This document shows positions 8,180 through 50,743 of a stretch of DNA of 64,000 bases, piece after piece. Where the stretch lies: positions 7,254,001 to 7,318,000 of the forward strand of contig JBHGNT010000021.1 in NCBI GenBank assembly GCA_043228905.1, written 5' to 3'. The translations under genes were made by a program, and so were the position numbers. Every line of letters starts with the position of its first letter. Position 1 is the first letter of the stretch. Source of the DNA: Azolla caroliniana (lineage: Eukaryota; Plantae; Polypodiophyta). The notes beneath the pieces were generated by a model, which ran no database searches, was not told the origin of the DNA, and worked only from the letters and a program-made list of their open reading frames with translations.

Positions 8180-8261
8180 GGGAGGTTAAAGGTATGCCCC
8201 CAACAAAACTCTGTAAGGCTTCATGTTTGTATAGAACAGGAACCTTGAACCCATTATGGCA

Positions 8262-18273: not shown

Positions 18274-21200
18274 ACATCTCATAGTTTGGTCCCTTCTCAC
18301 ATGTGCCAAAAACCAGATTCCCTCATTTCTTTTCTTTTCATCAAATTTACTTTTATATTTACTGTGTAATATTTATTTTATTTTGATTTGTTCTCAAACA
18401 CGAGACAACACTTAAGATGTAATCTCTTATTTGCTCTTATAGGCCATTTTAGCCTCTTAAAAGACGTTAATATCTCTCTCTCTCATGACTGCCGCCACGT
18501 CACTTCCAATGATACCATAGCCGACCACCTGCCACCTGTAATCGTTGTGTGCGTTCACTCCATGCGTGCTCTGTTGCGTTTCCTCTCTATGAAAAAAGAC
18601 GCACTTAAGGCCGAAATAGAGAAACTTAAAGTAGAAAACACTAACCTTAAGAAACAACTTAATGGCATAGAGGATATAAAGGATGAGATTAAAAAAGTTA
18701 AAGAGGAAGTTAAAAACGACATGGTGTTACCTAAAACGGGTTGGGTAGACGTAGTAAACGGAACATTAAAAAAGAAATAAAAGATAAAAATATTGTTAAC
18801 ACTACCCTTGAGGAAGAGAAAATGTGTCAAGGCTGACGCTTAAATGTACGTGTCACTGGACTCAAGGAAAGTGCATCCCCCAACGAAGATGCACAAACAC
18901 TTAGGAAAATGTTAGGGTACACAAAGGCCCCACCAATCACGAAAACTTGGAGGGTCAGACGTGACACAACTAGAAAGAGACCCTTAGTCTTTACTTTAAA
19001 GACTTGAAATCAAGAATCACATTTTTTAAGAAGAGACTAATTCTTCGAGATTTAGGCGGGGAACTTATCTACGTAGATGAAGACCTCACCAAGATCCAAA
19101 TTGAGCACCGCAAAAGTTGTATGCCATGAGTCATATACAAGCTCGTAAAGAAGGGCATCACGCCTTTTACTGAGACGAACAAGTGATAATAAATTATCGC
19201 TTTACCAACTACCAGCGTGGTTGACTAGAGTTGGTGGTGTTGATTTTAACGCAAAGTATAAAAAGCTTCACTTGCTTTCCATGTTGTCATTCATTACAAA
19301 AATCAAGCTTTGTACCTTTAGCATCAAGCTTATTTAGACTACACACCTTAGTGAGACCCTTTTGGCTCATAAGGCCAAGTCTCTTATGCCACAACTCCAT
19401 ATGGGACTGAACTTTAGCCAAAGCAATAAATTTGCCCGATATAGCAAATTTCCATGTAAGCAATAAAGGGTTCCCTTCTTTGTGCCTTTCACAATCAACC
19501 TTGAACCTTTTGTCATTTTCCATGATCCTCTCTCAAAGAGAATGCTATAACCATGCATATCCATTTGACCCACAGAAAGCAGCCTCTTCTTGATCCTTGG
19601 TACATAACACACATTATGCAAAACCAGGTCATCAGAGTTGTTGTTTGTAGAAAAATGGCCAGTGCCAATACCATCAATGGAACATACATGATTGTTTCCA
19701 AGGTATACATGGCCATGGCTACCTACAGTAAAAGTAGAAAAAGACTCCTTGACAGGAGTCACATAAAATGAAGCACCAGAGTCAACTATCCATGTTTGGG
19801 CCAATGCATCATTGACAGTCAACAAAGCATCACTAAGATCATTCTTAGTGATACACACATGTCTTGTGAATGAATATTTAGAGAGGCATCGTATGCATAA
19901 GTATCATAAGCTAAAAAAGTAGCACATAAAATGTCCTCAACATAAATATGTAGAGAGCCATATGACCACATTAGAGGCCAAATTGGCCTTCTCTTTGTCT
20001 TTTTGGCTGTCATGTGCATTAGTCCTATCCTTTTTCTTGTGGCCTTTTCTGCCACACTGATAGCATGTTACATCATTGCTTTTAATTTTGTTGTTGTTTT
20101 CCCTTTCCTTGCTTTTACTTTTGTTATTGTGTGCATAGTTAGTTCTCTTATCTGTCCTACCTCTAACCATGTTGGCTAAGCTGCCACCTTCTCCACTTGC
20201 TTTTCTCCTTATCTCTTCATTGTATATGGAGCCCCTAACACTATCAAAGGTCAAGTTGGGGCTATTAGACAATGTGACTACCAATGTCTCCCATCAGTCA
20301 GGTAGTGTCATTAGCAGGAAAATGGCTTTGAGCTTGTTATCAAAGGGAGCCATTCCTGAGTCCAACAAATGTGATAACGTACCTATAAACAAGGACAAGT
20401 ATTCAGGTGCACTCTTGGACTCATCCAATTGCATGCCAACAAGTTTTCACATTAGGTGTACTTGATTATCAGGCTTACTGTTTTCATATGTAGCCTTCAG
20501 CTTTGCCAATACTTTAGAAACAGATACCAACCCTTTGATATCTACCAAAATCTCATAAGAAACAACCATCTTAATATATATGACAGCCTTTTTGTTTAAA
20601 ATTCGCCTTGCATCTTCTGACATGTTCTTTGGTTTTTCTGCCTCCGATGCCCTGTCACGGTCCTTCAAAAATAGAATTCCTTGTATTCTCTCCTTTCACT
20701 AGTCGAAACCTATTCCCTCACATCGTCGAATCTCAAAAAGATTCTTTACATCTGAGGAGGATGATGTCATAGCTACACAATAAAGAGGTCTGAACACTTT
20801 TTCTTTGTTGTACAACACCTACGCAAAAAATATGAAACCCTACACCTGCTCTGATATCAGTTGTAAGGGTTAGGAATGATATCAATAAGGCTGAGGAATA
20901 CTCAAGATTCACCCTCGTATAGGCTCTTTAGATGCAACAGTGGAGCTATGGTAGAAAAGATAGAGATCGCGCACTAGTTGGGGGAGGTAAAATCAACGCC
21001 ACCAACTGTAGTCAACCACGCCATCAGTTGGTAGAGCAATCATTTATTATCACTTGTCCATCTCGGTAAAAGGCGTAATGTCCTTTACGAACTTGTATAT
21101 GACTCATGGCATACAACTTTTGCGGTGCTCAATTTGGATCTTGGTGAGGTCTTTATCTAGGTAGATAGGGTCCCCACCTAATTCTCGAAGAATTAGTCTC

Positions 21201-24200
21201 TTCTTAAAAAATGTGATTCTTGATTTCAAGTCTTTAAACTGAAGGACTAAGGCTCTCTTTTTAGTTGTCTCACGTCTAACCCTCCAAATTTTGGTGATTG
21301 GTGGGGCCTCTGTGTACTGTAACATTTTCTCAAGTGTTTATGCATCTTCCTCGGGGGATGCACCTTCCTTGAGTCCAATGAGACGTACATTTAAGCATCA
21401 ACCTTGACGCATTTTTCTCTTCCTCAAGGGTAGTGTTAACAATATTTTTATCTTTTATTTCTTTTTTAATGTTTCGTTTTACTACATCTACTCAACCCGT
21501 TTTAGGTAACTCCATGTCGTTTTTAACTTCTTCTATAACTTTTTTAATCTCTTCCTTTATATGCTCTATGTAGGATATTTCACCGTCTTCCCTAGATACC
21601 TCGAGGCCATTAAGTTGTTTCTTAAACATCAACTTTAAGTTTTTTTATTTCAGTCCTAAGTGCATCTTTTCCTCTCTATCTTTTCTCCTATTGGATTTAG
21701 CTTCTTTTGTCCATTTTCTCATATCATTCACTAGATTTACTAAACGATTAAACCTATCTAAAATGTCTTCTTTACTTATAACCTCATATTGTATCTCCTT
21801 ATGTTCTTTAGTTCGTTTAGACGTCATGTTGGTGTCAATAATAATAAAAAGATAAAATAAAAGGGTGGAAGACTTAGTCGAGCCTGTGGACATCACATTC
21901 ACTTTGGCATTTCGTTGGTTCGCACGTAGCATGGGACGAGCACGCTGAAAGAACCCACCAAAGAAGTCGCACATGCAAAGTGAAACATAAAGAGAGAGAG
22001 AGAGAGAGAGAGATTAACATCTTCTAACGTCACTCGGCCGACTCTTGACTCTCTCTTAGCCGATGCTCGGCTCTCAGCCGTCATTTGGCCGACTCTTAGC
22101 CACACTCTTGGCCGGTTTGGCCGCTGCTATTCGGCGGTCTCAGCCGGCTCTCTATTTGGCCGTGACTTTCCGACCACATGCTGGACTTCGGCCGTTGTCC
22201 GGTCGTGGCTCGGCTTCTTGGCCGATTCTCTGCTTCTCGGTCGCTTTCTTGGGCGTAGTTGGGCTGACTCTCAGCTTCTCGGCCGTGGTTGGGCCGAATC
22301 TCGGCTTCTTGGCTGCTTTCTCGGCCGTGGTTGGGCCGACTCTCGGCTTCTCGGCCATCACTCAACTATCGGCCATCACTCGGTCGAGCATGTGTGAACA
22401 TCTACCTCACTTCGGTGAAGTCACATGCATTTCATCGATTTATGTTGTACGTAGCACGCGACACGTGCGAGAGAGCACTCCAAAAGATGCACAACCCAAC
22501 CAAAGAAACGCCGCAAAGGAACGAACTCCACCAAGGTTGCACTTGCAACAGTAAGGGGATAAAAAGAAGAGTAGAGGAAACAAGAAGAGTGGAGGAAACT
22601 TTTACTCTGGTATGTCTCGTAAGTCTTGCGTACTTGATCTTGTTCATTCTTATGTGTGTAGCATGCCCACCAAATCTTCCCAAAATTATTTTAAATTTTA
22701 AAATTTTTCCCAAAATATGAGAAGAAGGCACGAAAATGAAAAGATTATTTAAGAACAAATTTGTTTACATTTTTTAAAAAAAATTTGAATTTAAAAAAAT
22801 AATAATAATAAACTGTTTAAACCGCGGTTTCTAACTGTTGAGACCGAACAGAACCGTTAAAAAAAACCTGAACCTGAACCGAACCGTTTAAACCGTTAAG
22901 CCGAGCTGAGAAATAAACTTGATGCCATGTCCATTAAAGGCCTCTTCATGGGATATTGTGAATCTGACGAAATGGGCTACAAGATTTGGATACCCCAGCT
23001 CAAGAAGGTTATACGCAGCCGGGATGTTGTTTTCAATGAGGCAAGGCTGCCTCAAAGGATGACCATAAAAGGGTTAGATTTCAGCATGACCAGCCACCTA
23101 TTAGACTCAGTTTTAACCATCAGGATGCACCACAAAGGACTGAAAATAATGATCATCCACTGGTTTTGGAGCCAGAAGATGTTGGACAGCAAGATGAGGA
23201 TCCTAAGAGGAATATGAACCACATAATAATGCTGAAAATAATGGACAGCAGCCTAATAATGATGATTTACATAACCACCCGATGCAGACCCATTGCCTAA
23301 GAATGTGGAATATTGGGTGAGATGTTCTACTCATATTAAACGAAATGTGAGTAGATTTGATCCCTCGTTGCACTACATTATGTTGACTGATGAGGGAGAA
23401 CCTCTTACATATAAAGAGGAAAAGGCATGTGAGAACAGCAATAAGTGGAAGCTTGCTTTGCAAGAAGAGATTAAGGCTTTGCATTCAAATAATTCTTGGG
23501 ACTTGGTTGAACTGCCCAAAGGAAGGAAAGCTATTCCTAACAAATGGGTATATAAAATCAAGACTGTTGATGACAAACCGAAGTATAAAGCAAGGCTGGT
23601 TGCAAAAGGATATGCTGAAACTAGTTTTCTCGTGGTAAAAATGACCACTTTGCGAGTGAAGGGCAGCACGAGGATTAGGGTTTTAGGTCAACCAGAGAGA
23701 GAGAGATGCACGTTGTCTTGGGTACAAAGAGTGTACGACATTTTTTGGTTTTTAGATTTTTAGATATATATATGTATATACAAGCCAAAATGTGTTACGA
23801 GTGCGTTCACACTCGTGCACTAATAAAAGGCACGATGGCCCTTTTTTCCTAACAACCTTCCACCTAAAGGCAATGTGCCATGAGGAGAAAAAAAAAAAAA
23901 AGTCAGTTAAGTCCAAGTATGTACAAAACTGAACTACATACATCTATCCAACTCCCATCATCTGTCGGCAATGAGCAAATCACTCAGCTGGAAGACCCTT
24001 CATGAGAAGATCTGCAAGATTATCATTTGTATGTACTTTGACAAGCTCAATGTTCTTGTTTTCGAGTACATCTCTAATGAAATGATAGTTCACATGTATG
24101 TGCTTCGTCTTTGCATGAAAGACAGAATTCCGCACTAGCATGTTAACACTCTGACTGTCACAATGAAGAATAGGTAACTCTGTAATGCCAAGATCTCTCA

Positions 24201-32902: not shown

Positions 32903-34190
32903 CTGAAGAGGAAGAAGGAGACAGAGAAGCTTCGGCTATGGCGTGTAGAAACAGAGAGAGCTCTGGCTTCTTCTGCGTATTATTCCAGTTTTTGTAAATT
33001 CAGTAAAAATGCCCCTCCAGTCTTCTCTGCTTTTGTTAATTCGGGAAATGCCATTATTCATGCTTCAATCCTCATTTTCATCGATATATGTACATGCATA
33101 CATACATAACATAATCATACATGCATCTATCCACGCGGTCTAATTGCTACCAAATATTAAAGAGGGAAAGCGAGGGAATTGTGGGCACGGACAGTGCTTG
33201 TCGCTTCATCATTTCTGAAATTAGAGATTGAGATGTTTGGACAAATTTTCAAATCAGAGATTTTCTGACATTCTGTTCTGCTTTGCCACCTGCATTACAA
33301 TTAGTAACACACCGGAAATCATTCATGTACTATGTATTTTATTGCGGCCTATTCTTTTTTTCTTTTTGTAAATGCGTGTTTTCCGAATCTGGATTTTGTG
33401 TTTTTGGAATGGTGAAATGGGTTAGGGTTTGACATTAAAATGTTGAAATGGATAGTTAACTTTATTAAACATGTTTAAATCTGAAAATGAATTGTTAAGA
33501 TGGGTTTAAGGTTTTTGGAATCAAAAGATGGGATGATAAAGTTAAAATCAATCAGGGTCATGTAAAGATTTGTATATGTCTTAGGGTTTTGTGTTATCAT
33601 GATATGTAGTTTCTTAATAATGGTAATATGGACTGTTAAAATGGATTTAGGGTTTACATATTTATTTATTTATTTAAAACAAAACATCCTTCCATTAGTT
33701 TTAAAAAATGGTTGCGTTATATATTGCTTGTTAAAGATGGTTGTGAAGTCCAAACACTTTGAAATGGAAGAAGTCGACTAGGATGATGCATATTACTCTG
33801 AAGGGAGTTATGTCACTTCCTCGTACTTTCTTTTGTATAACAATTTTGCATGTGTGCTAACCCTTGTTTTGATTCTACTGGGTTTTTGTTAGAAGGGGTC
33901 ATAGAAAGGACACAACTTCAAAGATGGAGGCTCAAAATAGCATGGACACTGCCATGTTGGACCCCATGACAATTTTCTGATTTCATAGCCATGCCAATTT
34001 TTGTATATGGCACAGATTGTAGTTGCTTTGCTATTTCTATAAATCAACCAATTTATAGAGACCACATTTTGTATATGCCTTGGATTGTATATGAAGGCCT
34101 CTTGTTAGCATAGAACAACAAATGCATCTTATATTTTTTAGACAATATCAACAGTGACATTTTTCTACAAGTCACCGTGTTGGTGATTTT

Positions 34191-34700
34191 GACTTTATAA
34201 AGAGTGTTACGCAATATGAAAAGCCACGGATTTACTTCTTATCATGATAATTCATCTATACGGTTAAGTATTTCTCCTATAATCCATCCCATTTGTTGAT
34301 TGACCTTATAAAGAATGTTACACAATATGTGCAAAAAGCCATGGATTTACTTCTTATCATGATAATTCATCCCATTTGTTAATTGACCTTATAAAGAATG
34401 TTACACAATATGTGCAAAAAGCCAAGGATTTACTTATTGTCATGATAAATCATCTATATTGTTAAGCATTTATTTTGATCGTGATAATTCATCCCATTTC
34501 TTGAGTGATGTGTGTAAAGAATGTTACACAATACGTGTAAAAAGTCAAGGATTTACTTCTTATCATGATAATTCAGCTATATTGTTAAGCATTTCTTCTT
34601 ATCGCGCTAATTCATCCAATTTGTTGAGTGACCATATAAAGAATGTTACACAGTATGTGCAAAAAGTCAAGGATTTATTTCTTATCATGATAATTCATAT
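34191..34700. repeat. About five imperfect tandem copies of an ~80-120-bp AT-rich unit
   Basis: Core TAAAGAATGTTACACAATATGTGCAAAAAGCCA.GGATTTACTTCTTATCATGATAATTCATC recurs near 34191, 34302, 34385, 34507 and 34630. Confidence 0.9.
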
Positions 34701-35299
34701 ATAGTGTCAAGCGCAGAGCAAACTCATCTATATGTATTAAGTGTTGAGCTTATATATATATATATAATACCTACAAAGCCCAATGATAGAACAAACTTAT
34801 GAAATAGTTAAAGTACAACTTTAGTATAATAAATTTCATAATCAAGATGGAATTAGGAAATTCTACAAAGTGTCATTAGATTGAGAAACTCATTGCAATA
34901 TTACTCCTTAACCATGGAATGCATAATTGATTTACAATCAATATGGGGTCACATTTGTTGATTCACTTTGTAAAGCTTGTTACACAACATGTATTAAGTG
35001 TTGTAGTTAGATATTGGAGATTTTGTGATTTGAAGATTTTGCGATCAACATCCAGATTTCCGGAAACCTAGGGGATGCGGGCTGCAAGCCTCTTTCAAAA
35101 CGGATCTTGACGATTTTGCCTCTCGTGCATACACTTACACACGAGCATACATACATACAACATTTATATTTGCTACCAAATAATAAAGAGGTCTAGTGAG
35201 GAAATCGCAATCACCAACGGTGCAAGGCATGTTTTGAAAGGTGTGTGTGATGTGCACCATCAAATCTCTCTATCCACAATAAGTGCGCGCTTGAAAACC

Positions 35300-35675
35300 A
35301 ACCCGGCTCTGACCAACCTCTGTCACGTCTAACCTTGGTAGTGAGATTTTCGAACTCCGACATTGTAATTTCTAACCTGGGCACATCTTGCCATGACATC
35401 ACCTAACCTAGACTATGTCAACCTAACTCGGGCATTGTAATTCTCTATTCTAACCTGGACTATGTCAATCTAACCAGGGAAAATCACGCCACATAACGCG
35501 GCAAGGATAATTCCCTGAGCCTAACCCGGACCATGTCAACCTAACCTAGGTATGCATTGTGATTTACCAAACCTAACCCGAATCTCGTAATTTTATAACT
35601 TTACCCCCGGTCCTTTGAACCTAACCCAACCCTTCCTACCGAACCTGGGGTTCAAACCTAAACCTAACCTAGGCA
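35300..35675. repeat. Degenerate AACCTAACC-rich repeat tract
   Basis: Many taacct/aacctaacc motifs embedded in ~30-60-bp units (e.g. gactatgtcaacctaac). Confidence 0.6.
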
Positions 35676-38256
35676 AATTTGCACTATTGCTAAAAACCTT
35701 CACATTTGTTATTTTTTTTGCCTATTTTTGAATTTTTAAAACCTGTTGCACTAGCACTTGCACCCACGTGAGATTGTATTATGCACTGACATATAATAAG
35801 ATAGTAGATAATGAATTGCTGACATGGACACAAACACTTACATATGCATAAGCCCATATAGGCGAACACTGATCAACACTAAACTTTCCTTAAACCTTGA
35901 GGATTTCACTGTCAACAAAGAAAATAGATTGAAGAAATATCTTTGGTATTCTTCTAGGGATCTTCCGATTAGCAAAAAACAAGCGCTCTCTGAAAGAAAG
36001 CGTTTGTGTAATTTACTTCCATGCATCACATTGATCCTTCTCTTGTCTTAGAATTAGAAACCCAAGCTAGAATTAATGCTTGAAGAAACCTACCTTCGAT
36101 TTTCAAGTCCATTATCATTCATCCTGGTTATACACTAAATAAGATTTGTAGAACCATTTCAACATCTCTAAGCATACACTTCTTGTTGGGTCTATCCACT
36201 CAAGTGGAGCCCACAACCAGCTGAGGTCGAAGAGCCTACTTAGAGCTGGCTGAGAATCGACAGGAAGTCGAGAGACGGCTGACAGCCACCTACAGGCTAA
36301 GCTTCGAATTGGCTGAGTGCCGATTGGGCTGAAAAGGGAAAAAGATATAATTAAGTATATTAACATATACCTATTTACAAATATATACACATACGTGTGG
36401 ACATGTATGTATGTATGTTTTATTATATTGTTTTGGTGTGTCTTTTCTGTATGTCCAAGTGTGAAAACATCTACGAAAAGAGACGTTACTCTACAAGGCT
36501 GAAGGAAGAGGGGCAAACACAAAACAACTTGATAGAGAGCAGAAAAACAATAGATAAGAAACAAAAGAGAGCGCTGAAAAAGAAGCGAGATAGAACTCAG
36601 AGATTGAGACATCGAGTGAAAGAGAGAACATAGAGAAAAACAAAAAATAGAGAAACAAATAGAAAACGAAAGAGAACAAGAGGAAGAGCGTTCTACGAAG
36701 TGGAGGAGACAAAGTCTTGTGAGGAGTTGGTCGTGCTGACAGAGAACCACGACCGTGCAACACCTCTCCTGTCTACTCGCATCAGGTTACTTCATTTCAT
36801 GGTTGTTTTCTTGTTTCCTATTTTGCTAGATTTTCTATCCACCCAGTTGGGTGAAGAATTGTAAGGTTATTTTCTTTGATTTTTCCACCCAATTGGGTGA
36901 GGATCGTGTTGGGAATTCGGTCTCTCCGGATGGGATCCGGTGAGAACCGGAAGAGATCCGAAAACCGAATCGGTGGACCCGGTGAGAACCGAAAGAGAAG
37001 ACAAATTTGTAAATATGTCTTGAATAAGCCCATTGAGGCTATATTTGTAAATGGCCCTAAGTTCATATAACTATAAATATGACTTTGGGCAATCACTTTG
37101 GGGGTGTGATTGTGTTGAGTGTGTGATATTGTTGTAACTGTTGTACAGAGAGAGAGAGAGAGAGTGAGAGAGATGTTACCCGTTCCTTTGGGTGAACACC
37201 TTCGATAGATCTGCGTCTATCGGTCTTCAAGGGCGTGGTACGTGAAGGCTCGTAACAGAGGCGTCGAGAGAGATACAGGGCTCAGAGAGAAAACACTAGT
37301 GAGGTCTTGATAGACGTGGCGGCGTGAAACTCATAGGTATGGATCAAAGCACAGACTCATGGAGCAAAAATAGGCACAAATCAGATATATTACTATGACA
37401 GAAAAGATTACAGAACACGGCCTATGGCCGGTGACCTTATGAGTTTGTCTAATTACGAAGGACTAAGCTAGTGCTTCCGCCTATAGTTTTTCTTCTCCCC
37501 CCCTCTGAGGTGTTGGTCCTCGTTTAAATAACTTTTCCCCTAATACACAACTGAGCCGTCGGTGGCCCGTGATACTCGGACTCGGCGTTTGCTAATTTCC
37601 TAATTTTACATTTCTGTCCTCTGTGTTGAGAACTCGACGTTCCTTATGTCCGACGCTCGGCCACAACCGAGATTCTTTTCATACACAGAAAAACAGGTAA
37701 TGAAACGCGACACAAAAGAGGAGAAATGGTACACAGGAGGTATACGTGGAAAACCCCTTGATCGGGGAAAAAACCACGGCAGCCCACAAGCTGCAAACTG
37801 TCACTATGTAGAAATATACAACAGTGAGATCACCGAGGCAACGATCTCGTGCTCTCAGATCTTCGCCACAGGCGGCGGTTACAACAGAGGCAACGACCTC
37901 GTCTCTCGCTCTCTCTCTCTCTCTCTCTCTGTACAGTTACGCGCTCTGATTTCTTCTTGCACCAACAACGAAGAATAATCACAAAACGACAACTGCTCCA
38001 AAAAAAAACTATAAGTTTGCCCTAAGTCATATTTATACTAATATGACTTTTCGGCTATTTACAAATGTAGCCTCGATGGGCTCCATCCGGCTCTCCGCAG
38101 TCGGGTACTCCTCATCCGGTTCATACCGGGCCTACACCATCCGACTCTCCGCAGTCGGGTACTCCTCATCCGGTTCATACCAGGCCTACACCATCCGACT
38201 CTCCGCAGTCGGGTTCTCCCCATCCGGAGCGACCTGTCTTCCAACAAACTCCCCCT

Positions 38257-39939
38257 TCACTCCGGCATGGGGTGTCTTTCCAGCCCGATCCTCTTCCGGC
38301 ATGCGTCCAGCTTGTCGGGTGTCAGCACTTTGGTCAGCATATCTGACCCGTTCTCGGCCGTGTGGATCTTCGCCAATGCGAACTCCTGGTCATCTACCCT
38401 TTCCCGGATCCAGTGATACCTCCGCTGGATATGCTTCGTCGGGGAATTGTAGGCCGCATTCTTGGCAAGGTGGATGGCACTTTGACTCTCGCAGTAGAGT
38501 CGGTATTCCTCTTGCCGGATACCGAGCTCCCCGATGAAGTCCTTCATCCATAATATTTCCTTGCCGGCTTCCACAACCGCCATGTACTCCGCCTCTGTGG
38601 TTGACAATGCAACCGTCTTCTGCAGCCTCGACTGCCACGAGACAGCTCCCCTTGCATATGTCATCACATACCCGGATGTAGACCGGCTGGTATCCACATC
38701 AGCCGACATGTCCGAATCGGTGAAACCGTCTAGTTGAGGTTTTCCGGTGCCGAATCGGAGACACATATATGAAGTGCCCTTCAAATACCGGAGTATCCAT
38801 TTGACCGCGTTCCAATGCTCCTTGCCGGGATTACTCATGAACCGGCTCACCACTCCGACTGCGTATCCAATGTCCGGTCGGGTACAAACCATTGCGTACA
38901 TCAAGCTCCTGACGGCAGAGGCATATGGAATCTTCATCATATCTGCCTTCTCTCCCTTTGTCTTCGGGCTTTGCTTGCCGGACAACTTGCAGTTTGCCGG
39001 AAGTGTCGATCCGACCGGTTTTGCATCTGATATGTTGAACCGGTGAAGCACCTTTGTCACATACTTCTCCTGTGACAGCCATAGTTGCTTCACTGACCGG
39101 TCCCGAATGATGTGCATCCCCAACATCTGTCTTGCCGGACCTAGGTCTTTCATTGAGAAGGTCCAGTTGAGAGCCTTCTTCAGCATCCGTATTTTGCCTT
39201 TGTCTCGTCCGACGATCAACATGTCATCCACGTACAGGAGGAGTATCAGGAAGTCCCCTCCTTCGAACTTCTTCACAAACACGCAGTGATCGGCCTGCGT
39301 CTTGTGGTACCCTTGATCGGTCATGAAGGAGTCGAACTTCCGATACCATTGTCGGGGAGCCTGCTTCAGTCCGTACAGGCTCTTCTTCAACCGGCATACC
39401 AGGTGCTCCTTCCCTTTCTCCACAAATCCTTCCGGTTGCTGCATGTAGATTTCCTCTTCGAGGTCGCCGTGGAGGAATGTTGTCTTCACGTCCAGCTGCT
39501 CTACCTCGAGATCCATGCTTGCTGCTATACTCAGCACCGTCCGGATGGAGGTCATCTTTACTACCGGGGCGAATATTGTTGGTAGACAGGTCCCTCCGGA
39601 TGGGAAGGGAGAAGAACAGTGCCGACGAACAAACTCGGCCGAGGCCGAAACGGTATGAACCGGATGGGGAGAACCCGACTGCGGAGAGTCGGATGGTGTA
39701 GGCCCGACTGCGGAAAGCCGGATGAGGAGTACCCGACTGCGAAGAGCCGGATGAGGAGTACCCGACAGCAAAGAGCCGGACGGGGAGTTACCCGACTGCG
39801 GAGAGCCGGATGGAGCCCATCGAGGCTACATTTGTAAATAGCCGAAAAGTCATATTAGTATAAATATGACTTAGGGCAAACTTTTAGTGTGTGTGTTATT
39901 CTTTTTGTTGGTGCAAGAAGAAATCAGAGCGCGTAACTG

Positions 39940-40000
<61 letters not shown>

Positions 40001-43000
40001 GAGGTCGTTGCCTCGGTTGTAACCGCCGCCTGTGGCGAAGATCTGAGAGCACGAGGTCGTTGCCTCAGTGATCTCACTGTTATATATTACTACATAGTGA
40101 CAGTTTGCAGCTTGTGGGCTGTCGTGGTTTTTCCCCTATTTTGGGGTTTTCCACGTATACCTCCTGTGTACCATTTCTCCTCTTTTGTGTCGCGTTTCAT
40201 TACCTGTTTTTCTGTGTATGTAAAGAATCTCGGTTGTGACCGAGCGTCGGACATAAGGAACGTCAAGTTCCCAACAAATATTTCGTCGAAGTCCACGCCC
40301 TTCTTCTGCTGGAACCCCTTCACCACGATCCTGGCTTTGTATCTCGGGGGGTTGCCGGCATCTCCCGGTTTCAACTTGAACACCCACTTGTTTCGGAGTG
40401 CCCGCTTTTCTTTCGGCAGCTCCACCAATTCGTACGTATGGTTCTCATGCAGGGAATCCATCTCATCCTGCATGGCACTTAACCATTTTCGGCTGTGGGT
40501 GTCTTCCTTCGCTTCTTCGAAGCTTTCCGGCTCCCCCTCATCGGTTAGCAGGACATGCTCTGCATCCGGAAATCTCTGGGGCGCCCTTCTCTCTCTGAGA
40601 GGATATCTACGTCTTCGGGCTTCGGTAATCAGTTCCTCCATTTGCTCTTCATCCGAATCCGATTCGGGATCTTGACCGGTTCCGGTCTCAGCTTCCTCTA
40701 CTTCTTCTTCTGCCGGTTCGGTATCCTCACCGTAACCGACTGGTTCCTCGAGTGCTAACCGGTCTCTTGCCGGTTGGGTCTGCTCATTGTAGAGTCTATC
40801 CTTACCGGTCGACTCGGAGTTCACTATCTTCTTCTCCGACTCCCAGTCGACGAGCGTCTTGTCCTCCATGAAGATAATATCTCGACTACGGAATATCTTC
40901 TTGTCGACCGGGTCCCACACTCGGTAGCCGAACTCATCGTCACCGTAACCGAGGAATATGCATGGCCGGGTCTTTGGATCTAGCTTTCCTCTCCGGTCCA
41001 TTGCTACATGCACGTACGCGAGACACCCAAACACCCTTAGATGCCGGTAGGACACTTCCTTACCGGTCCACACTCTCTGTGGCGTGTCTCCGTCCAAGGG
41101 TACTGAGGGTGATCTGTTTATCACATATGTCGCCGTCGACAGTGCCTCAGCCCAAAACTTCTTGGGTAGTTCTGCATGCGCTAGCATACTCCGGACCCTC
41201 TCCATTATGGTCCGGTTCATCCTCTCGGCCAGTCCGTTTAGTTCCGGCGTCTTCGGCACGGTAAATTCGAGCCGGATTCCCTTCGAGCGGCAGTACTCCT
41301 TGAACTGCCCCCGGTACTCACCTCCGTTATCTGCTCGAACCGCCTTCAGCTTCCGGCCGGTTTCTCTTTCCACTCTCGCGTGGAGCTCTTTGAAGACGGA
41401 TAACACCTGATCCTTCGTCTTCAGCGGTGTGGCCCACAGCTTCCGGTTGTGGTCATCTATGAACGTCACGAAGTACTGCGCTCCGGCATGTGACTTCGTG
41501 TCTACTTGACAAACATCCATATGCACCAACTCCAGTGGTGCATTACGTCTCATCGGTGGCCTTGGTCGGAAGGAGGTCCGGTTCTGCTTACCAGCCAGAC
41601 AATCAATGCACTTCTCTAAATGCACGTTCTTCACTGGGATGAGGTTGTCGTCTGCAAGCCTCTTCATCCCCTTCTCACTCATGTGACATAGCCTCTTGTG
41701 CCACAGCTCACCGGCAGTGTCGGAAGCCACGTTCACTTCTTCCGGACATAACCGGGCATTCATCAGGTACAGTGTGTTTACCTTCCGGGCCTGAGCCACA
41801 ATCAGGCTCCCTTTGCTAAACTTCATGACACCGTTCCGGATGCTACCCGTGTAGCCATCATCATCTAGCCGATCGGCTGATATCAGGTTCAAACGAACTT
41901 CCGGAACGTGTCGGACATCTTTCAACAGCAACTTGCATCCGGTTGGTGTTGTCAGCCACACGTCTCCTATGCCGACAATTCGGCATGTTCCTTCATTCCC
42001 CATCCGGACACAGCCGTGATCACCGGCTGAGTAGGATGAGAAGCATTTCCGGTCCGGGGTAAGGTGGAACGACGCTCCGGAATCTACCACCCAGGTCATC
42101 TCATCGCCGGCATGGTTTATCTCACTCTCCTCGGTGATGAGCATCAACTCCTCTTCACTTGCCGCAATTGCCGTCGTTCCCTTCTGGTTCGGCCCCCTCC
42201 GGTCTTTACCGTTCCGGTCTGTACCGTTCCGGTTCGGGGTTTGCTTCGAATCGGTACCGTCGGTTTCCTTGTCTTTACAGAAATGCCGACAGTTCTTTTG
42301 GAAGTGTCCCGGCTTGCCGCAATAGAAGCAAGTAGGCCTCCCCCTTGACTTTGATTGTGTCCCCGACTTCTCCCGGTTCTGGGGACTACGGTTTCTATGT
42401 CTTCTGCGTTCCGATTCGGTAAGGAGCGCTTTGGAGTCGGAGCTCATATCTTTGTCTTTCCGACGAGCCTCCTCATCTAGCAAGCTCGACTTTACTCTTG
42501 CCAGGGATAACCGTTTTCCTTCCGGCCCGGCGTTGCCCAAAGTAACAACCAACGTCTCCCAGCTATCCGGGAGGGAACCGAGCAGGAGTAGCGCTAGGAC
42601 CTCATCGGCAAGAGGTACTTCCAATGACGTTGCCTGGTGAATCAGCCCCTGGAAGGCATTCATATGCTCCGCCATGCTGGAGCCATCTTGGTACCGGAGT
42701 CTTACAAGCTTCCGGAATACCGACGCCTGATTGACAGCATTTTTGTTCTGGAACATCATGCCGATCTTCTCCCAGAGCTCATGAGCCTTGCTCTCTTCAT
42801 TGAAGTTGTTGTACAGGCTCATGTCGATGAAGCACCGTATGTACGCCGTTGTCTTCATGTGCATCACCTCCCATATCGCGGCGTCGATTTTGTCCGGTCT
42901 CTTGTCCCCGAACTGAACCGGCAGCCAGAGGTCTTTAACCACGAGCATGTCCCTCATCTTCGACTTCCACACTGAATAGTTGGAGCCGATGAGCTTGAAC

Positions 43001-43023
43001 ATGCCGCCAAACGATTCGTCCAT
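38257..43023 (-). pseudogene. Copia gag-pol polyprotein (~1353 aa) interrupted by a solo LTR
   Basis: MDESFGG start, CFYCGKPGHFQKNC, WVVDSGASFH, HMDVC/ADNGGEY/LAERMNRT, YVDD, RNase H. Removing 39577-40281 rejoins DFDEIF|APVVKM in frame. Confidence 0.93.
39577..40276 (+). mobile_element. Nest level 5: 700-bp solo LTR of a sister subfamily of the level-4 Copia, in opposite orientation
   Basis: TGTTGG...CCAACA, exact TSD AATAT (39572-39576, 40277-40281). Aligns to the reverse complement of the host LTRs with extra U3 repeat units. Confidence 0.95.
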
Positions 43024-43686
43024 TTTCTGTGTCGATTTTGCTCTGATACCACTTGTTGAGAACTCGACGTTCCTTATGTCCGACGCTCGGCCACAACCGA
43101 GATTCTTTTCATACACAGAAAAACAGGTAATGAAACGCGACACAAAAGAGGAGAAATGGTACACAGGAGGTATACGTGGAAAACCCCTTGATCGGGGAAA
43201 AAACCACGGCAGCCCACAAGCTGCAAACTGTCACTATGTAGAAATATACAACAGTGAGATCACCGAGGCAACGACCTCGTGCTCTCAGATCTTCGCCACA
43301 GGCGGCGGTTACAACAGAGGCAACGACCTCGTCTCTCTCTCTCTCTCTCTCTCTCTGTACAGTTACGCGCTCTGATTTCTTCTTGCACCAACAACGAAGA
43401 ATAATCACAAAACGACAACTGCTCCAAAAAAAAACTATAAGTTTGCCCTAAGTCATATTTATACTAATATGACTTTTCGGCTATTTACAAATGTAGCCTC
43501 GATGGGCTCCATCCGGCTCTCCGCAGTCGGGTACTCCTCATCCGGTTCATACCGGGCCTACACCATCCGACTCTCCGCAGTCGGGTACTCCTCATCCGGT
43601 TCATACCGGGCTTACACCATCCGACTCTTCGCAGTCGGGTTCTCCCCATCCGGAGGGACCTGTCTTCCAACACTCTGGACAACACC

Positions 43687-43760
43687 TGGCACGCCCATGG
43701 GACAGGAACTTGTCCGTCAGACCCACAATTCCTTGATTAGAAGTCAAGTGCCTATAGGCT
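43687..43760 (-). other. tRNA-Arg(UCU)-derived segment ending in CCA, abutting the inverted LTR
   Basis: Minus strand: AGCCTATAGGC A CTTGA CTTCTAA TCAAG GAATT GTGGG [20-nt loop] CCCAT GGGCGTG CCA gg TGTTGTCC. Perfect 5-bp anticodon stem with TCT anticodon, T-stem and CCA. No 5' acceptor strand. Confidence 0.75.
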
Positions 43761-44228
43761 GAAGAAAAACTATAGGCGGAAGCACTAGCTTAGTCCTTCG
43801 TAATTAGACAAACTCGTAAGGTCACCGGCCATAGGCCGTGTTCTGTAATCTTTTCTGTCATAGTAATATATCTGATTTGTGCCTATTTTTGCTGCATGAG
43901 TCTGTGCTTTGATCCATACCTATGAGTTTCACGCCGCCACGTCTATCAAGACCTCGCTAGTGTTTTCTCTCTGAGTCTTGTATCTCTCTCGACGCCTCTG
44001 TTACGAGCCTTCACGTACCACGCCCTTGAAGACCGATAGACGCAGATCTATCGAAGGTGTTCACCCAAAGGAACGGGTAACACAATTTGGCACGCCCGGT
44101 TACAGCTGTGAGTGCACAACGAACTTCATTGAAGGTAACCACCAGCCGCCGTTACGGCGCCCTCTCGCACCACGAGGTCTCAGCCACCCGCCCGACGCCC
44201 TGAGCCAATCGAAGGAACTTCCGACTCG

Positions 44229-45620
44229 GTGGTCACTGACCAATCCTTTCCTGATCAATCAGAGGCTTGTCCAGTGCAATCCTCGCCACCGGACACTCGA
44301 TCGCGAGTTGATCCACCACCAGAACCCCCGTCGAGCCCTCCGGAGGTCAATCAACCGGAACTAAACCCTTTTCCGGTGCTACCAGAAGACCCACAGTACG
44401 ACATCATGTCGTACCCATACCCACGATCTACCGACGGACCAGACGCAGAGTCACACGTCCGTGCCTTCATATCCACATGGCAGGCTAACCACTCCACGCA
44501 CCGCCTCACGCCGGCCGAAATTGATGCCTCGAAGATTGCCGAGTTCACACTCTCCTTCGATGGACCGACCGCACGATGGTACTCTCGTCTCGAAATAGGA
44601 GAGGCCACCACTTTCCAAATTGTGCGCACAAAGTTCCTTGAACTTTTTCATCGCGAGGTGCATAAACGGGAACTGCTCTAGCAATTCTTCTCTATATGCC
44701 AGGAACCGCACGAAACGGTCGCGTAGTTCACGATCCGGTTCCAGGATCTCTACAGACAAGTGGGCGATGATGTCTCGACACAACATATACTAGACACTTT
44801 CCTATCCAGTTTACGAGAGCCTCTACGAACGACTCTCGCACTTACAAATTTCGCCAACCATACGATCGAACAAGTCATAGCGCGCGTTCTCGCCCTCGAT
44901 CGGAACCAGCACGGCACGGCCTTCTCGATGACATCCTTGCAAAACGCTCTTCCCCAAGAGGACAATCGCTTTCGCCAAGCCCTCCAATGCACTGCGTGTT
45001 TAGGATCAGGGCACCTGGCCCTTGAATGTCCCCATCGACCACAGTGTCTGATCTGTCAGTCTCGAGCTCACACAGTCGAGCAGTGCGAATATAATATGCT
45101 GAACCGCACAACGGCGGCAGCGGTCCGCCAGATCGAGCCACGAAATACATACTCTCGGCAGGACGAGCGATATATCTACCGAGACCAGGATAACGACCAA
45201 CCGCGATCCCCGGATCGACGGCGCCGAGACGACGATTACCGACGTAATAACCGTTGTGATTATTATCGCGATGACCGGCACGATGATTATGGCCGATATG
45301 ATGACGATCGCGATGACCGGTATGATCGATGGAACTCACGCATTGATCGGCGAAACGGCAACTGCAACACACGCAACAATAGAAGACCTAATGACAACCG
45401 CCGACGGGACACTCCTCCAAATGACCAGCGCAACTCCAACGCACCTCGGAACAACCCACCACCAAACGAGACCGAGAATCAACAACAACAACTTCCACAC
45501 ACAGACCGAGCGGACACCAGTAGCTCGGCCAACGTGACATGTTTTAAATGTAATCAACTAGACCACCCTGCCACCACCCCGGACCCCGAAAGCATCCTCG
45601 ACATCTTAAAGGAGGAATGA
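44229..45620 (+). pseudogene. Ty3/gypsy-type gag: retrotransposon capsid, two CCHC knuckles, RD-rich region, truncated third knuckle
   Basis: One frame broken only by TAG at 44679 and 44724. Motifs SFDGPTARWY, CTACLGSGHLALEC, CLICQSRAHTVEQC and CFKCNQLDH. No protease or pol follows. Confidence 0.85.
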
Positions 45621-45632
45621 AACGAGGATCAC

Positions 45633-45716
45633 GCCTAAAAGGCAATTTTTGTAATATTGTTAGTATTTTGTAAGTCGTGGGTCTGACGAACAAGGTCCTG
45701 TCCCACGAGCATGCCA
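45633..45716 (+). other. Second tRNA-like segment ending in CCA, 2 nt before the sense LTR
   Basis: GCCTAAAAGGC ... GTGGG TCTGACGAACAAGGTCCTGT CCCAC GAGCATG CCA gg TGTTGTCC. Same expanded T-loop as the left copy; the anticodon arm is replaced by AT-rich sequence. Confidence 0.65.
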
Positions 45717-47049
45717 GGTGTTGTCCAGAGGACAGAAATGTAAAATTAGGAAATTAGCAAACGCCGAGTCCGAGTATCTCGGGCCACCGACGGCTCAGTT
45801 GTGTATTAGGGGAAAAGTTATTTAAACGAGGACCAATACCTCAAAGGGGGGGAGAAGAAAAACTATATGCGGAAGCACTAGCTTAGTCCTTCGTAATTAG
45901 ACAAACTCGTAAGGTCACCGGCCATAGGCCGTGTTCTGTAATCTTTTCTGTCATAGTAATATATCTGATTTGTGCCTATTTTTGCTGCATGAGTCTGTGC
46001 TTTGATCCATACCTATGAGTTTCACGCCGCCACGTCTATCAAGACCTCGCTAGTGTTTTCTCTTTGAGCCCTGTATCTCTCTCGACGCCTCTGTTACGAG
46101 CCTTCACGTACCACACCCTTGAAGACCGATAGACGCATATCTATTGAAGGTGTTCACCCAAAGGAACGGGTAACAAGAGAGATACAGAGTGATACTCTGT
46201 CGTAACCGCCACTGTGTGAAGAAACAGAGCTCGAGGTCACTGCCTCCGAGTCTCTGATTGTAACTCTTCCTCTTTATAGTGATAGTTGGAGTGTGTGGCT
46301 CCCATGGTTTTTCCCTATTAGGGTTTTCCACATAAACATCTTGTGTCATTCTTTGTTTTTTCTTTGTGTACTCTCCACTTCCCATTTATGTGTTTACTTC
46401 TTATAGAAGCGTTTCTAACTACTCGGTTGTGGCCGAGTGATATTCCGCGCATTTCTCATCAGATCGTAGCCAAGGTTGTTGCCTTGAAGCTAATATATTT
46501 CCTCTAGACAAAAACCTAGAGAGACTAGCACATTCATTGTGCTTATTGTTATTGGTTTATCCACCCGATCGGGTGACGATTGTAGCCAAGGCTATTTTGC
46601 CTTAAGGCTAGCACATTCCTTGTGCTTATTGTTGTTGTATCCACCCAATCGGGTGAAGATTGTAGCCAAGGTTGTTGCCTTAAGGTTTGTACGTTCCTCT
46701 AATCAAAAGCTAGAGAGGTCGTACGCAGTTTGTAATCCTTGTTATTCTATCTACCCGATTGGGTGAAGGTTGTAACCAAGGCCATTTTCCTTGAGGTAGA
46801 TATACCCCTCTAGTGAGGTCGTATTTCATTGTACTCCAAATTATAGTGAAGTTATTTGGAACCTATAGTTCCCGTGGTTTTTTCCCTATTTTGGGTTTTC
46901 CACATAAAAAATTTGGTGTACTCTCATTTTTCGTCTTGTGGTTTCATCAAGTGTTAATTATGTTTGAAGTTTAAATCATCTCGATTTGGATCCATATTCC
47001 CAACACTTGCTTTAAGCACAATTGAAAACCAGGGAAAACCTGACTGCGG

Positions 47050-47820
47050 TAATAATGAATGTTGTTTGCTGCAACAACGATGACTCCATCAATGGGAGAA
47101 GGAATTGCTAGAAGCATGTATGTATAAGAAGGGAGAGATTCTACAAGGAAAAGAGGTTACAATCACAAGTTGAATATGCTAGATGTTATGTTGGTTTCCC
47201 TCCTCATGGGAGAAGGAAGGGTCGGAAGCCGGCTAAGGATTTGCTAAGAGCCGAAAGCTAGTCGAGAGTTGTTTAAAGATAAACTAAGGGCCAAAAGTGT
47301 AAATTATATATTTATACATAAACATGTGTGTGTATGCACACGGGCAGGAACACTCCGTGGTGTGAGTGAGAGCGAAGGCAAAAGAAAATGCTACTTTAGA
47401 GAACAATGTTGTGCAAGAAGACCTCGCAAGTGTAGTTGCACCCGAGACCTATAAATTCGGATCGACGGCTTGTAGCAGATCAAGTTCTATTGTTCTATGA
47501 TTTATTCCTCTGTGTCTATGGTTCTTATTGTTCCTGTTCCGTCCACTAAGAGAGATGAAGACTAATTTCCAAGGTTAGGGCCTTGAAATATTTTGGATAT
47601 TCCCCTAGTGGTCTAGGGAGGTTGTAAACAAATGTACACTCTATCGTAGTGAAGTTTAGCACCCTACGAGTACCGTGGTTTTTCCCATTTTAGGGGTTTC
47701 CACGTAAAATATCGTAGTGTGTCTCTATTTTGCTTTTATTGTCGGTTTGAATCATATTCATGGGTGGCCTAGGGCAACATAAGTGGCCATCGGATTTTGA
47801 CCCATAAACACATCACCAAA
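47050..47820 (+). mobile_element. Decayed LTR remnant
   Basis: CTATAAAT near 47449 and the Copia-type U5 motif CGTGGTTTTTCCC..GGGGTTTCCACGT near 47674-47705. Termini unclear. Confidence 0.45.
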
Positions 47821-49619
47821 TACCAAGGAAAATAGAAAAAGGCGTGGAAGTTTGCAAAACATACTGAAGAAGTAGACAAAATCAAAGGGTGTTGCTTCAT
47901 AGTGGTATTAATGCTTAACGTAGTGACCATACAAGTATGCTTCTTTAGTGATGCACATCCAACCTAGGTGGGACTAGCAAAATTGGTTCAATATACCCAC
48001 AAGAACCAACATAGTTATAATAATCTTTCTGTTTTTTCTTTCAATATACCTACAAGAACATTCAATATTTCATTATTTGAAACAAAAATTATATTACCAA
48101 TAATTATAATTCTATGTGTAAAGTTTATTATTCCTGTGCATTCAAGGTCTAACCTTCTTGTTTTGAAGAGGGTTCCAATCTTCGTGCCATTTTAGGCTTC
48201 TAAATGCCTTACATGTATTGTAAATTTCCGGTCTCTAATTTCCAGCATGTAATTTCACCTGTTGTAATCGATAAGCTTGTAATGAAGAAGTTATTTTGTA
48301 AATTTGTTTTGATGTTGGTTTGGTATGTTGTATATTGACATATGTATATAGACTTGTTTGTTTTTGTGGTTTGAAGAGTTTGTATATGAAGTTGTATAAG
48401 ATCACAATAACATGTTATAGAAGACGGAATGTAAATATTCATGTTGATAAATTTGTTCTAATCTTGGATTTGATATGTGTATATCAAATCATAAATGAAT
48501 CACCTTATCTTCCAATGTTATTGTGAATGAATTGCTGGATATGAAACTATAACATTCCAATCTTGTCATATGGATATACATATCTTGTTTGAAGTCAATG
48601 TTGGGCCACAATTTCTTGAACCCTATTACAAAAATGTGTTGAGGATTTTGAGTTGCCCTCGGTGCATTGAAGATATTGAGATCATCAAATTGCATCATTA
48701 TGTATGCATTTTCTTTTAATAGCGAAACATGTGCAAGTTGAAGGGGGTCATTTGAAAAGTAAATTTACTAAGAGATTTTTCTTTTACAAATCATCATCCA
48801 TAAAGGAATATTGTACCATTTTGAGTTGCTAGTTTTGAGCCACTTGATTTATGAGAGAGAAACAAAGGTAGAATCATCTTTTGACTCTCTATGGTTTGTA
48901 AAAGTTGTCAACTTTGTTTTCATGTGCATGTTCTAATTTTTACTTTAAATAGTTTTTTGTTGTGGTGCACTTGTGTTAATTTTCCGCCTTGATAAAAAAA
49001 TCCATTGTTTTGGTTGTTGATAGAGAAGGCTGCTAACCTTATAAAGTTGGCAAAAAACTCATAAATATTGTTTTAAATCCCCCAACAATATTGTGGTGTG
49101 CTAAAACACCACAATATTACATTTTCTTTGAAAACACTATGAAAATTGTTGTCCCCAAGCAATTTAGCCCATATTTCAAAAACATTCATTACTTTTTGCT
49201 CGTCAAGGTAAGTTGCATTCCTATATCATTAGCCACATGATTACAAAACCCGATGGATGCATTTACAACTTTTACTATTTGTGTACATGAGATCTCCAAT
49301 ATGCACACATATGGGTATGATGTATATCGAAGAAGGTATGAAAATTTATTGTGCTTAGTGAAGCATTCTAATAGATGATGAAATCAAGGCAAGCTACAAT
49401 AGCCTTTGGTGGAGAGTGGTTATGTTGAGCCAAAACAGGAGCAAGAAAGAGACTCTTTCCATCCCATGCATATGCCATGCTCATGAAAAGGTTGTGATCG
49501 CCACCTTTTTTCACAAAAATTGGCAAACCATGTGGCTACAAGGACACACGACATCATCCATTGTATGCATGTCAGCACAAAGGTCTGTATGTGGATACGT
49601 GCATACAACATACATGTGC

Positions 49620-49767
49620 AATGTACGTATGTATGTATGTATGTATGTATGTATGTAGGCACAAAGGTGTGTATGTGCATACGTGTATTATGTATACAAC
49701 ATACATGCGTACGTATGTATGCATATGTATGTATGTGTGTGTGTGTATGTATGTATGTATGTATGTA

Positions 49768-49802
<35 letters not shown>

Positions 49803-49822
49803 ATGTATGTATGTATGTATGC
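49620..49822. repeat. (TATG)n/(TG)n microsatellite
   Basis: Directly visible. Confidence 0.95.
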
Positions 49823-50743
49823 ATAATACGTAATATACTTGAATGCATTGGAAAACATTCGTTTCATACGAATGAAAACGAATGCGTATGTTATCAAAAC
49901 ATTGTCATGATTTTTTTTAACACTTTTTACCTTATAATAAATAATGAATACAAAAGTATGGTATTTACCATACTTACCCTCGAATGATTGAAACATTCCC
50001 GAATGCGGGATGCACGTATGGTTCAAACTTCATACTATGAATGCACATATGTGTAACAGTGTATGTATGTATGTATATGTATATGTACATATATGTACAA
50101 CATGGTTGTCCTTTTCAGGCATTGTCATGAAGAATGTGTGTGTCAGTGTGATGATAAATGTAGAGTAACTACAAGTAGGAGGTAAACAGAGTACATATAT
50201 GTATGTATATCATTCAAGTGTTCATATGTAGTGTAGGTTTTGATTTTGCTTTAATTGTAGGAGAAACAGACTCCAGAGTATAGTAGTATTCTTTGCTATT
50301 CCCCAACACATTCTCTCCATTCTAACTCTCTGTTTCTACTTCTCCTCTCACCTCCAAGAAAGAAACATTCCCAAAAGAGCTTTCCATACACACATGCTCT
50401 TACAACAGAGTTTATGTAAATCGTGTTGATTATTGAAGCCCCCATTTCCCCTTTTCCTTCTCTCAAGAGAAAATCTTGTAACACCTGCAAATTCAAGCCA
50501 AAATTTCATGCCTTTGTAGTCATATATCTATATATATATTATACTTTTGCCTTTTTGGTCTGTTGTACTGTGGAAATTTTGGTTGTTATGACGTGGGTTA
50601 TTCTTCACTCGATATTATTAAAACCTTTCCCAAGCTGGAATTCCAGCATTTTCCTTTTATACTGTAAGTGAAGCTAATTTTCTCCTTATCTTTTTTTTTT
50701 GGCTTTCTTCACCATCTTTGGGTTTAATTAGGTTTAAGATGAG

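Follow-up and report, generated by a model that had tools for sequence, protein, structure and literature searches.

Plus-strand priming from a polypurine tract (PPT) is, to our knowledge, treated as near-universal in retrotransposons with long terminal repeats (LTRs) and in retroviruses, and the exceptions that we know of concern the minus strand. A tRNA-like sequence occurs in the U3-R region of HIV-1. The closest described systems keep the PPT: Ty3 combines it with a primer-binding site (PBS) that is bipartite (PMC5371799), the RNA of Drosophila Gypsy contains a second PBS (PMC1635307), and the Helenus elements carry tRNA sequence inside their LTRs and retain a PPT (PMC10886601). We analyzed 64,000 nucleotides of the Azolla caroliniana genome (GenBank assembly GCA_043228905.1, contig JBHGNT010000021.1, positions 7,254,001 to 7,318,000 of the forward strand), hereafter the window. 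An LTR retroelement at 37174-46175 of the window has a piece of tRNA-Arg(UCU) sequence ending in CCA where the PPT is expected.

A tRNA-Arg 3' cassette precedes the LTR

A preliminary description of this DNA had reported a tRNA-like 3' end with CCA standing 2 nt (GG) before the LTR start TGTTGTCC. This sequence was found at 43687-43726 (minus strand) and at 45677-45716 (plus strand). Each copy, which we call the cassette, is 40 nt long and consists of the 5' strand of the T-stem, the T-loop, an insert, and then 17 of the last 18 nucleotides of the tRNA, ending in CCA. In the right copy, which lies at the PPT position, these parts are the T-stem (45677-81), T-loop (45682-86), insert (45687-99) and 17-mer (45700-16); the left copy has the same order with a 13-nt hairpin insert. 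The T-loop of about 20 nt described earlier is indeed shared by both copies, but it resolves into an ordinary T-loop followed by a 13-nt hairpin between tRNA positions 58 and 59. Chance would give 0.10 occurrences of the 17-mer in the window, which has two, and a model of 22 cassette copies, which include both window copies by construction, gave only these two strong sites in the window and a weak match over the PBS.

The generic tRNA tools alone leave the identity of the cassette unestablished. The cassette lacks the complete cloverleaf of a tRNA gene: ARAGORN called no tRNA gene in the window, the Rfam model RF00005 gave a sub-threshold 12.9 bits (E 6.2) on the left copy only, over its D and anticodon part, and an Rfam scan of 40000-50000 returned simple-repeat matches only. 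Its identity comes from host tRNA-gene contigs, which overlie 43721-43753 in all four runs. Between 4 and 11 contigs per run (4/4 runs) diverge at 43753, where they continue as the D-loop and acceptor of a tRNA; at 43721, seven contigs in each of two runs diverge into a T-loop and a 3' acceptor without CCA. By their sequence, these diverging contigs are host tRNA-Arg(UCU) genes or gene copies, and they support the earlier match to tRNA-Arg(UCU) where ARAGORN and Rfam do not. The part conserved in the family is the T-arm and the 3' strand of the acceptor only, and the near-whole tRNA mimic first described is not a family trait. RNAalifold recovered the inserted hairpin and not the T-stem. A GCCT/AGGC hairpin that had been noted in the left copy is present, but its loop is 2 nt and its 5' half may derive from the LTR junction, since the match to the host tRNA contigs ends at 43753. 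On the right, the GCCT/AGGC hairpin ahead of the cassette is a variable feature of the 3' untranslated region (UTR), and the full-length relative L060, described below, is without it.

The cassette is conserved across a clade

A metagenome scan for the cassette-LTR junction pattern gave 113 matches at 109 loci. Fifteen of the 113 came from other projects and were removed before the family counts; they were rejected as 4 ordinary opposite-strand PBSs, 2 PBS-like sites and 9 apparent chance matches. The other 98, and with them all family loci, belong to a single series of 15 assemblies that do not count as independent samples. The T-arm (tRNA positions 49-58) lies outside the search pattern, and it is kept at no fewer than 7 of 10 positions in 88 of the 98; five of the remainder are cut by contig ends and five have diverged. 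Among the 88 copies the insert is 13 nt long in 81, 14 in 6 and 12 in 1, and T54, A58 and G51 are each present in 88/88. The 17-mer and the two-purine spacer were fixed by the search pattern, and their invariance is biased. The inserted hairpin has compensatory changes in three of its four pairs, with a covariation score of 0.271 compared with 0.116 after shuffling (inflated by relatedness), and in the 33 multi-copy contigs 130 of 132 pair cells are Watson-Crick. The LTRs of 15 representatives can be aligned in only 8 of 105 pairs, and contigs bearing three organism labels cover the cassette. The tRNA-Arg(UCU) 3' cassette 2 nt before the 3' LTR is a real, conserved and clade-wide feature and, as had been supposed, not a one-off, being present in both window copies and in 88 of the 98 related pattern matches.

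Scans of viral contigs gave no matches, and the GTDB genomes gave one, which was taken as chance. A search for longer gag relatives found none, and a representative search gave short relatives only. Six loci (L010, L016, L039, L044, L074 and L076) belong to a short family that carries the same cassette, has a 10-nt PBS and is apparently non-autonomous.

The elements lack a polypurine tract

The clade is without a PPT, and the cassette occupies its position. In 86 of the 88 copies no purine run within the final 45 nt before the LTR is longer than 5, in agreement with the first account of a tRNA 3' portion in place of a purine run. In one family the extra open reading frame (ORF) upstream stops 47 nt before the LTR, which leaves space for the cassette alone. 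By contrast, the copia element nested in the window keeps its purine tract.

Another reading (option c of the preliminary description, extended here to a relic without function) treats the cassette as cargo within U3, with the real LTR beginning at TG45618 after the purine run 45608-45617. This option is refuted because TG45618 is the TGA stop codon of the extra ORF, whose last residues the purine run encodes, because the distance from this stop to the LTR varies from 47 to 142 nt among relatives, and because the 5' LTR of L060 has no cassette; the covariation, which shows selection, also argues against it. Two observations could be read in its favor: 11 PBS sites in the loci lie downstream of a cassette-preceded LTR, and only 2 of the 95 LTR starts found are free of a cassette. 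The 93 starts that follow a cassette (91 by pattern and 2 variants) are, however, expected from how the loci were chosen, and the two without it include the 5' LTR of L060, which lies directly upstream of its PBS and starts at TGTTGTCC with unrelated DNA upstream. As for the 11 sites, we read their loci as assemblies collapsed across the LTR, and the four in which the extra ORF precedes the cassette (L006, L011, L026 and L033) fit this reading. The check proposed earlier, whether the cassette stands before 3' LTRs only, came out so in L060 and is qualified by the 11 PBS sites; we regard a cargo or relic as extremely unlikely. An ordinary PBS on the wrong strand was likewise rejected as the identity of the cassette, because on the cassette strand both pol and the extra ORF are found upstream of it.

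At the LTR start itself, the U3 of L001-L109 opens with TGTT followed by a small hairpin whose letters differ between families and whose pairing, judged by eye, seems to be kept. A bipartite PBS reaching into U3 was dropped on inspection, as the LTR start keeps a local hairpin and not a fixed tRNA complement.

A full-length relative and the classification of the clade

An autonomous pol-encoding relative had been sought and was found in L060, which is full-length with open gag-pol and extra-ORF frames. Its order is PBS, gag-pol (a 1797-aa frame), extra ORF (1194 aa), cassette and LTR. The Pfam order of its pol is reverse transcriptase (RT), RNase H (RH) and integrase (INT), with the RNase H catalytic motifs present. 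Pfam gave no match to a chromodomain or an additional RNase H (aRH) in L060 pol, and none to aRH in L050 pol. The extra ORF (142-3723 of L060, minus strand) has no Pfam match; Transposase_32/ATHILA clusters were found at lead level only (0.84-0.87). The named relatives of the pol are those of Riccia, Marchantia and Adiantum, at 42-48% identity, and of angiosperms, at about 41%. In a quick, provisional tree of 37 rows, which held no named reference set, it grouped with fern and liverwort rows, apart from the angiosperm Athila-type rows. These relatives point to a non-seed plant as the likely host.

Judged from these sequences, the clade is non-chromoviral Ty3/gypsy. The elements have gag followed by RT-RH-INT, TG...CA LTRs, a PBS and a short target site duplication (TSD), the last known from the aberrant window insertion only; a PPT abutting the 3' LTR is missing. 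They share with Athila the lack of aRH and chromodomain, the 3' extra ORF and the 5-bp TSD, and differ in the PBS, which is for tRNA-Arg and not for tRNA-Asp, -Asn or -Ala. The additional aRH of Tat (Ogre, Retand, TatI-III) is absent, and the features of Phygy and Selgy (4-bp TSD, PBS for tRNA-Trp or tRNA-Ala, no extra ORF) and of Helenus (TRIMp3; tRNA-derived sequence in both LTRs, a PPT, less than 1 kb) are not those found here.

The minus strand is likely primed by a host tRNA

The PBS of the window element begins at 44088, as first described, 5 nt past the LTR, and matches tRNA-Arg(UCU) over 13 nt (44088-44100, plus strand). Three PBS types occur in the clade, with 13, 14 and 10 nt of tRNA match. 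The 14-nt type corresponds to the isodecoder of the host contigs, and the 13-nt type matches the start of an 18-nt PBS in L020, a locus from another project; both types include the tRNA base that is absent from the cassette. The reported 10/10 complementarity between PBS and cassette holds for the left copy, but the right copy, which shares its element with the PBS, is mismatched at 2 of the 10 positions. Predicted pairing is weaker for cassette:PBS than for tRNA:PBS, at -24.9 versus -28.3 kcal/mol, and in the L015 family at -18.6 versus -29.4 kcal/mol. The PBS of one family pairs with a second host isodecoder, and its own cassette pairs with that PBS poorly.

It is likely from this pairing that the minus strand is primed by a host tRNA rather than by the cassette. 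Under option b of the preliminary description, the transcript would supply its own primer: cut after CCA, it would anneal or fold back to the PBS instead of the host tRNA. The cassette 3' end is complementary to the PBS, and the family whose PBS has only a 10-nt tRNA match fits cassette and tRNA alike. This option is nevertheless disfavored because the PBSs match host tRNA ends better than they match the cassette: in two families they reach 13-14 nt of the host tRNA 3' end, including the base missing from the cassette, and they follow two host isodecoders. Self-priming would also leave the plus strand without a primer, and we consider it very unlikely.

Families differ in the distance from the 5' LTR to the PBS (5, 4 and apparently 2 nt across those of L006, L011, L016 and L060); the spacer on the U3 side was set at 2 by the search pattern. 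L009 and L012 have a PBS-like site on the opposite strand, where complementarity to tRNA-Arg seems to reach the T-arm; they gave no pol match.

Priming of the plus strand

We lean toward the view that the complement of the cassette on the minus strand (the anti-cassette) is a second PBS, at which a host tRNA primes the plus strand too. The preliminary description had listed this as option a; it is the best-supported of the readings, yet one that we infer. It starts from the observed position and conservation of the cassette, the absence of a PPT and the complementarity to host tRNA. Reverse transcriptase would copy the cassette, and RNase H would clear the RNA from the minus DNA. The 3' end of a host tRNA would then pair with the anti-cassette over 17 nt with one tRNA base bulged, and pairing may reach T-arm positions 49-58, with the inserted hairpin looped out. 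Extension of the free CCA-OH of the tRNA would begin with GG-TG... and would leave the usual 2-nt overhang, no cut being needed to make the primer. On balance, then, host tRNA-Arg(UCU) may prime both complementary DNA (cDNA) strands in this clade, by way of a docking site on the minus DNA that is structured and bipartite, and the window may hold an integrated fossil of such a tRNA-DNA complex.

The CCA ends two bases before the LTR, which is where a plus-strand primer ends; a 2-nt overhang is standard in Ty3 and retroviruses. With RNA parameters as a proxy, the tRNA:anti-cassette duplex is predicted at -35 kcal/mol, and at -32 in the L015 family. In the 33 multi-copy contigs, five of the six non-Watson-Crick stem pairs are A.C on the sense strand, which corresponds to wobble on the minus strand; none is G.U and one is neither. 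The family-fixed changes T50C, G52A, T55C and G68A are wobble-compatible with a tRNA on minus DNA. These substitutions amount to about three independent stem events, which is weak, and their polarity (four wobble-compatible, three not) leans weakly to tRNA priming. A literature search, which covered few subscription papers and no Repbase, found no report of tRNA-primed plus strands.

The left cassette may hold a trace of the proposed docking. The anticodon arm CTTGA-CTTCTAA-TCAAG that had been described there is present (43732-43748, minus strand), but it is private to this copy and not a family feature: it was found at none of the 109 loci at up to 3 mismatches, and family contigs depart from the left copy at 43726-43730 into an AT-rich 3' UTR. 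From the CCA back to the T-loop the left copy is element-derived, with the insert, the missing base and the family C55; from the variable loop to the D-stem it is derived from host tRNA, with the crossover within the shared nt 49-54. The captured piece of host tRNA-Arg(UCU) is 27 nt long (43727-43753, minus strand; D-stem 3' strand, anticodon arm and variable loop). It meets the cassette in register, at the T-stem common to both, within a 9-kb insertion that is a one-off. The chimera, a single event, likely formed during reverse transcription, given that the insertion around it has two integrase ends: the nascent minus strand would have switched, at the shared T-stem, from the cassette onto a host tRNA docked and paired in register. 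Such an in-register chimera is the outcome predicted by tRNA docking on the anti-cassette, and is likely a trace of that pairing.

Several points weigh against a tRNA-primed plus strand. The changes T55A, C56T and G49C, also multi-copy, would mispair with the tRNA, and the G>A change of the L015 family gives no better pairing with its PBS isodecoder (-19.6 versus -21.3). The invariant T54 and A58 and the intact T-stem also suit a T-loop fold of the sense strand, while T-stem covariation was seen in 0/5 pairs, a count biased by the search pattern. A tRNA:DNA hybrid is itself a substrate of RNase H. The chimera is a template switch, open to any packaged tRNA-Arg, and no proof of priming; its junction is bridged by no contig in four runs and rests on the window assembly alone, with no bridging contig at 43755-43759 except at a depth of 2.18 in one run, a gap that by itself proves nothing. 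The reading as a whole is drawn from sequence and predicted pairing.

Some of these points suit the main rival, in which the cassette RNA itself is the primer. RNase H would cut at the CCA as it does in removal of the tRNA primer, a built-in tRNA minihelix would replace the PPT, and the T-arm-like fold and the extra hairpin would protect the fragment. The 17-mer corresponds to tRNA nt 59-76, the part of the tRNA that is copied, as far as m1A58, when plus strong-stop DNA is made (PMC8599865), and therefore the cassette hybrid would equal the tRNA-removal substrate. The invariance of T54 and A58, the intact T-stem and the compensatory changes in three of four pairs of the inserted hairpin are consistent with a folded RNA primer, and the left-arm chimera could arise by copying of an unremoved cassette primer and a jump to tRNA. 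On the other hand, T50C and G52A, for which there is no compensating change, disrupt the T-stem of the sense strand in multi-copy subfamilies, and the sense folds are unexceptional (z of -0.1 to -1.8). We hold this alternative to be rather unlikely as a whole; we also know of no mixed GC-rich tract described as an RNase H-resistant sequence.

A further alternative is that the cassette base-pairs with the PBS of the genomic RNA, or else with the anti-PBS end of the minus strand, and thereby helps template circularization or strand transfer, the plus-strand start being fixed by a by-product cut. Cassette:PBS pairing extends over 10-11 bp in two families (-22 to -25 kcal/mol), and long-range 5'-3' pairing by way of tRNA has been described for Ty3 and for Drosophila Gypsy (PMC5371799, PMC1635307). 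Cassette:PBS pairing is weak in the L015 family (-18.6), however, and it would leave unexplained the conservation of nt 49-65 and the strict CCA-RR-TG register (R, purine). We consider it improbable, and host-tRNA priming from the anti-cassette remains the reading that we prefer.

Anatomy of the window insertion

The interval 37174-46175 is a single insertion with an exact U5 end at each side (TGTTACCC... and ...GGGTAACA). The two U5 ends point outward beneath one 5-bp TSD, AGAGA (37169-37173 and 46176-46180). The host site is a GA repeat in another copia-type LTR, the halves of which are collinear across the insertion, and the empty site is present in contigs; the TSD lies within low-complexity DNA, which makes it somewhat weaker evidence. 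The left arm starts with the inverted LTR A, nt 8-457 of which (37174-37623, minus strand) provide the left U5 end, while its nt 1-7 and the 2-nt GG spacer lie at 43678-43686 (minus strand). Between them is a later Ty1/copia insertion (37624-43672, minus strand) with an ordinary purine tract, a TSD CTCTG (37619-37623 and 43673-43677), and a PBS that we take to be of the tRNA-Met type. The left cassette and the tRNA piece follow, and a palindromic inversion junction of ambiguous origin (43754-43760) leads to LTR B.

The right arm, all on the plus strand, consists of LTR B, which is a truncated 5' LTR (nt 136-457; 43761-44082), the PBS, and a gag fragment (44139-45566) with two stop codons inside, which ends within the zinc knuckle and is about 82-91% identical to relatives. 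An internal deletion near 45566-45578 took out pol and most of the extra ORF, of which the C-terminal tail and TGA stop are left (45578-45620). The right cassette, the 2-nt GG spacer (45717-45718) and LTR C, a complete 3' LTR (TGTT...AACA; 45719-46175), complete the arm. The length of 457 bp first given for two complete LTRs was confirmed, but the left one is inverted and split by the 6-kb copia; it is also not the 5' LTR, which is the third, truncated copy at 43761-44082.

The three LTRs differ at 5, 7 and 8 of 322 positions, a divergence compatible with one event. The window copy is best read as an integrated aberrant cDNA that has two U5 ends and an internal deletion and is dead. We judged rearrangement after integration to be unlikely, since an exact U5 end stands at each side and a single TSD encloses both.

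Elsewhere in the window, a copia LTR of the same family lies reversed within the RT of the nested copia (39576-40277), about 84% identical to the LTRs of that copia. Long inverted repeats at 18666-21570 surround a copia protease-like fragment (19367-19903) and are possibly another fold-back product. A tandem array of 83-123-nt units (34176-34992) and a run of CTAACC-like repeats (about 35300-35700) were also seen. Host genes in the window encode a pentatricopeptide repeat protein with an E motif (6197-8185, minus strand) and a RabGAP-TBC protein (13682-15415, plus strand).

Comparison with known systems

An abundant clade without a PPT shows that the plus-strand priming step can be rewired, whichever of the leading mechanisms holds, and L060, with its open gag-pol and extra-ORF frames, is a direct test system. 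If a host tRNA does prime the plus strand, a single host tRNA, together with the 3' fragments derived from it, would be tied to both priming steps. Programs that search for LTR elements and expect a PPT would miss members of this clade, or mis-orient them, since on the opposite strand the cassette looks like a PBS.

With the plant non-chromovirus Ty3/gypsy elements as a group (Athila, Tat, Phygy and Selgy) the clade has in common the lack of a chromodomain, the GAG-PROT-RT-RH-INT order and the 5-bp TSD, and the 3' extra ORF is as in Athila; a tRNA-Arg PBS without aRH fits none of them, and the available text of the plant Ty3/gypsy classification lists no clade with that combination and mentions the PPT as a general feature only (PMC6317226). 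Tf1 and Tcn1 self-priming and copia half-tRNA priming are likewise non-standard uses of a primer, but there the minus strand alone is altered.

The tRNA-primed minus strand, the TG...CA LTRs, the 5-bp TSD, the RT-RH-INT order and a primer site just upstream of U3 agree with canonical priming in Ty3 and HIV-1; unlike that scheme of a tRNA at the PBS and an RNase H-resistant PPT, a tRNA-sense cassette ending in CCA stands in place of the PPT (PMC5371799). Ty3 and Drosophila Gypsy, with their bipartite or second PBS, likewise have near the 3' end a second site for tRNA pairing in which the T-arm takes part, but those sites are tRNA-complementary in the RNA, serve minus-strand initiation and are accompanied by a PPT (PMC5371799, PMC1635307). 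Here the cassette RNA is tRNA-sense, and therefore only the minus DNA can bind the tRNA. The terminal-repeat retrotransposons in miniature Helenus, Cassandra and Ajax are also LTR elements bearing small-RNA-derived sequence. They carry it within both LTRs as an RNA polymerase III promoter and keep PBS and PPT, whereas the cassette described here lies outside the LTR, occurs in autonomous elements, includes the CCA and replaces the PPT (PMC10886601).

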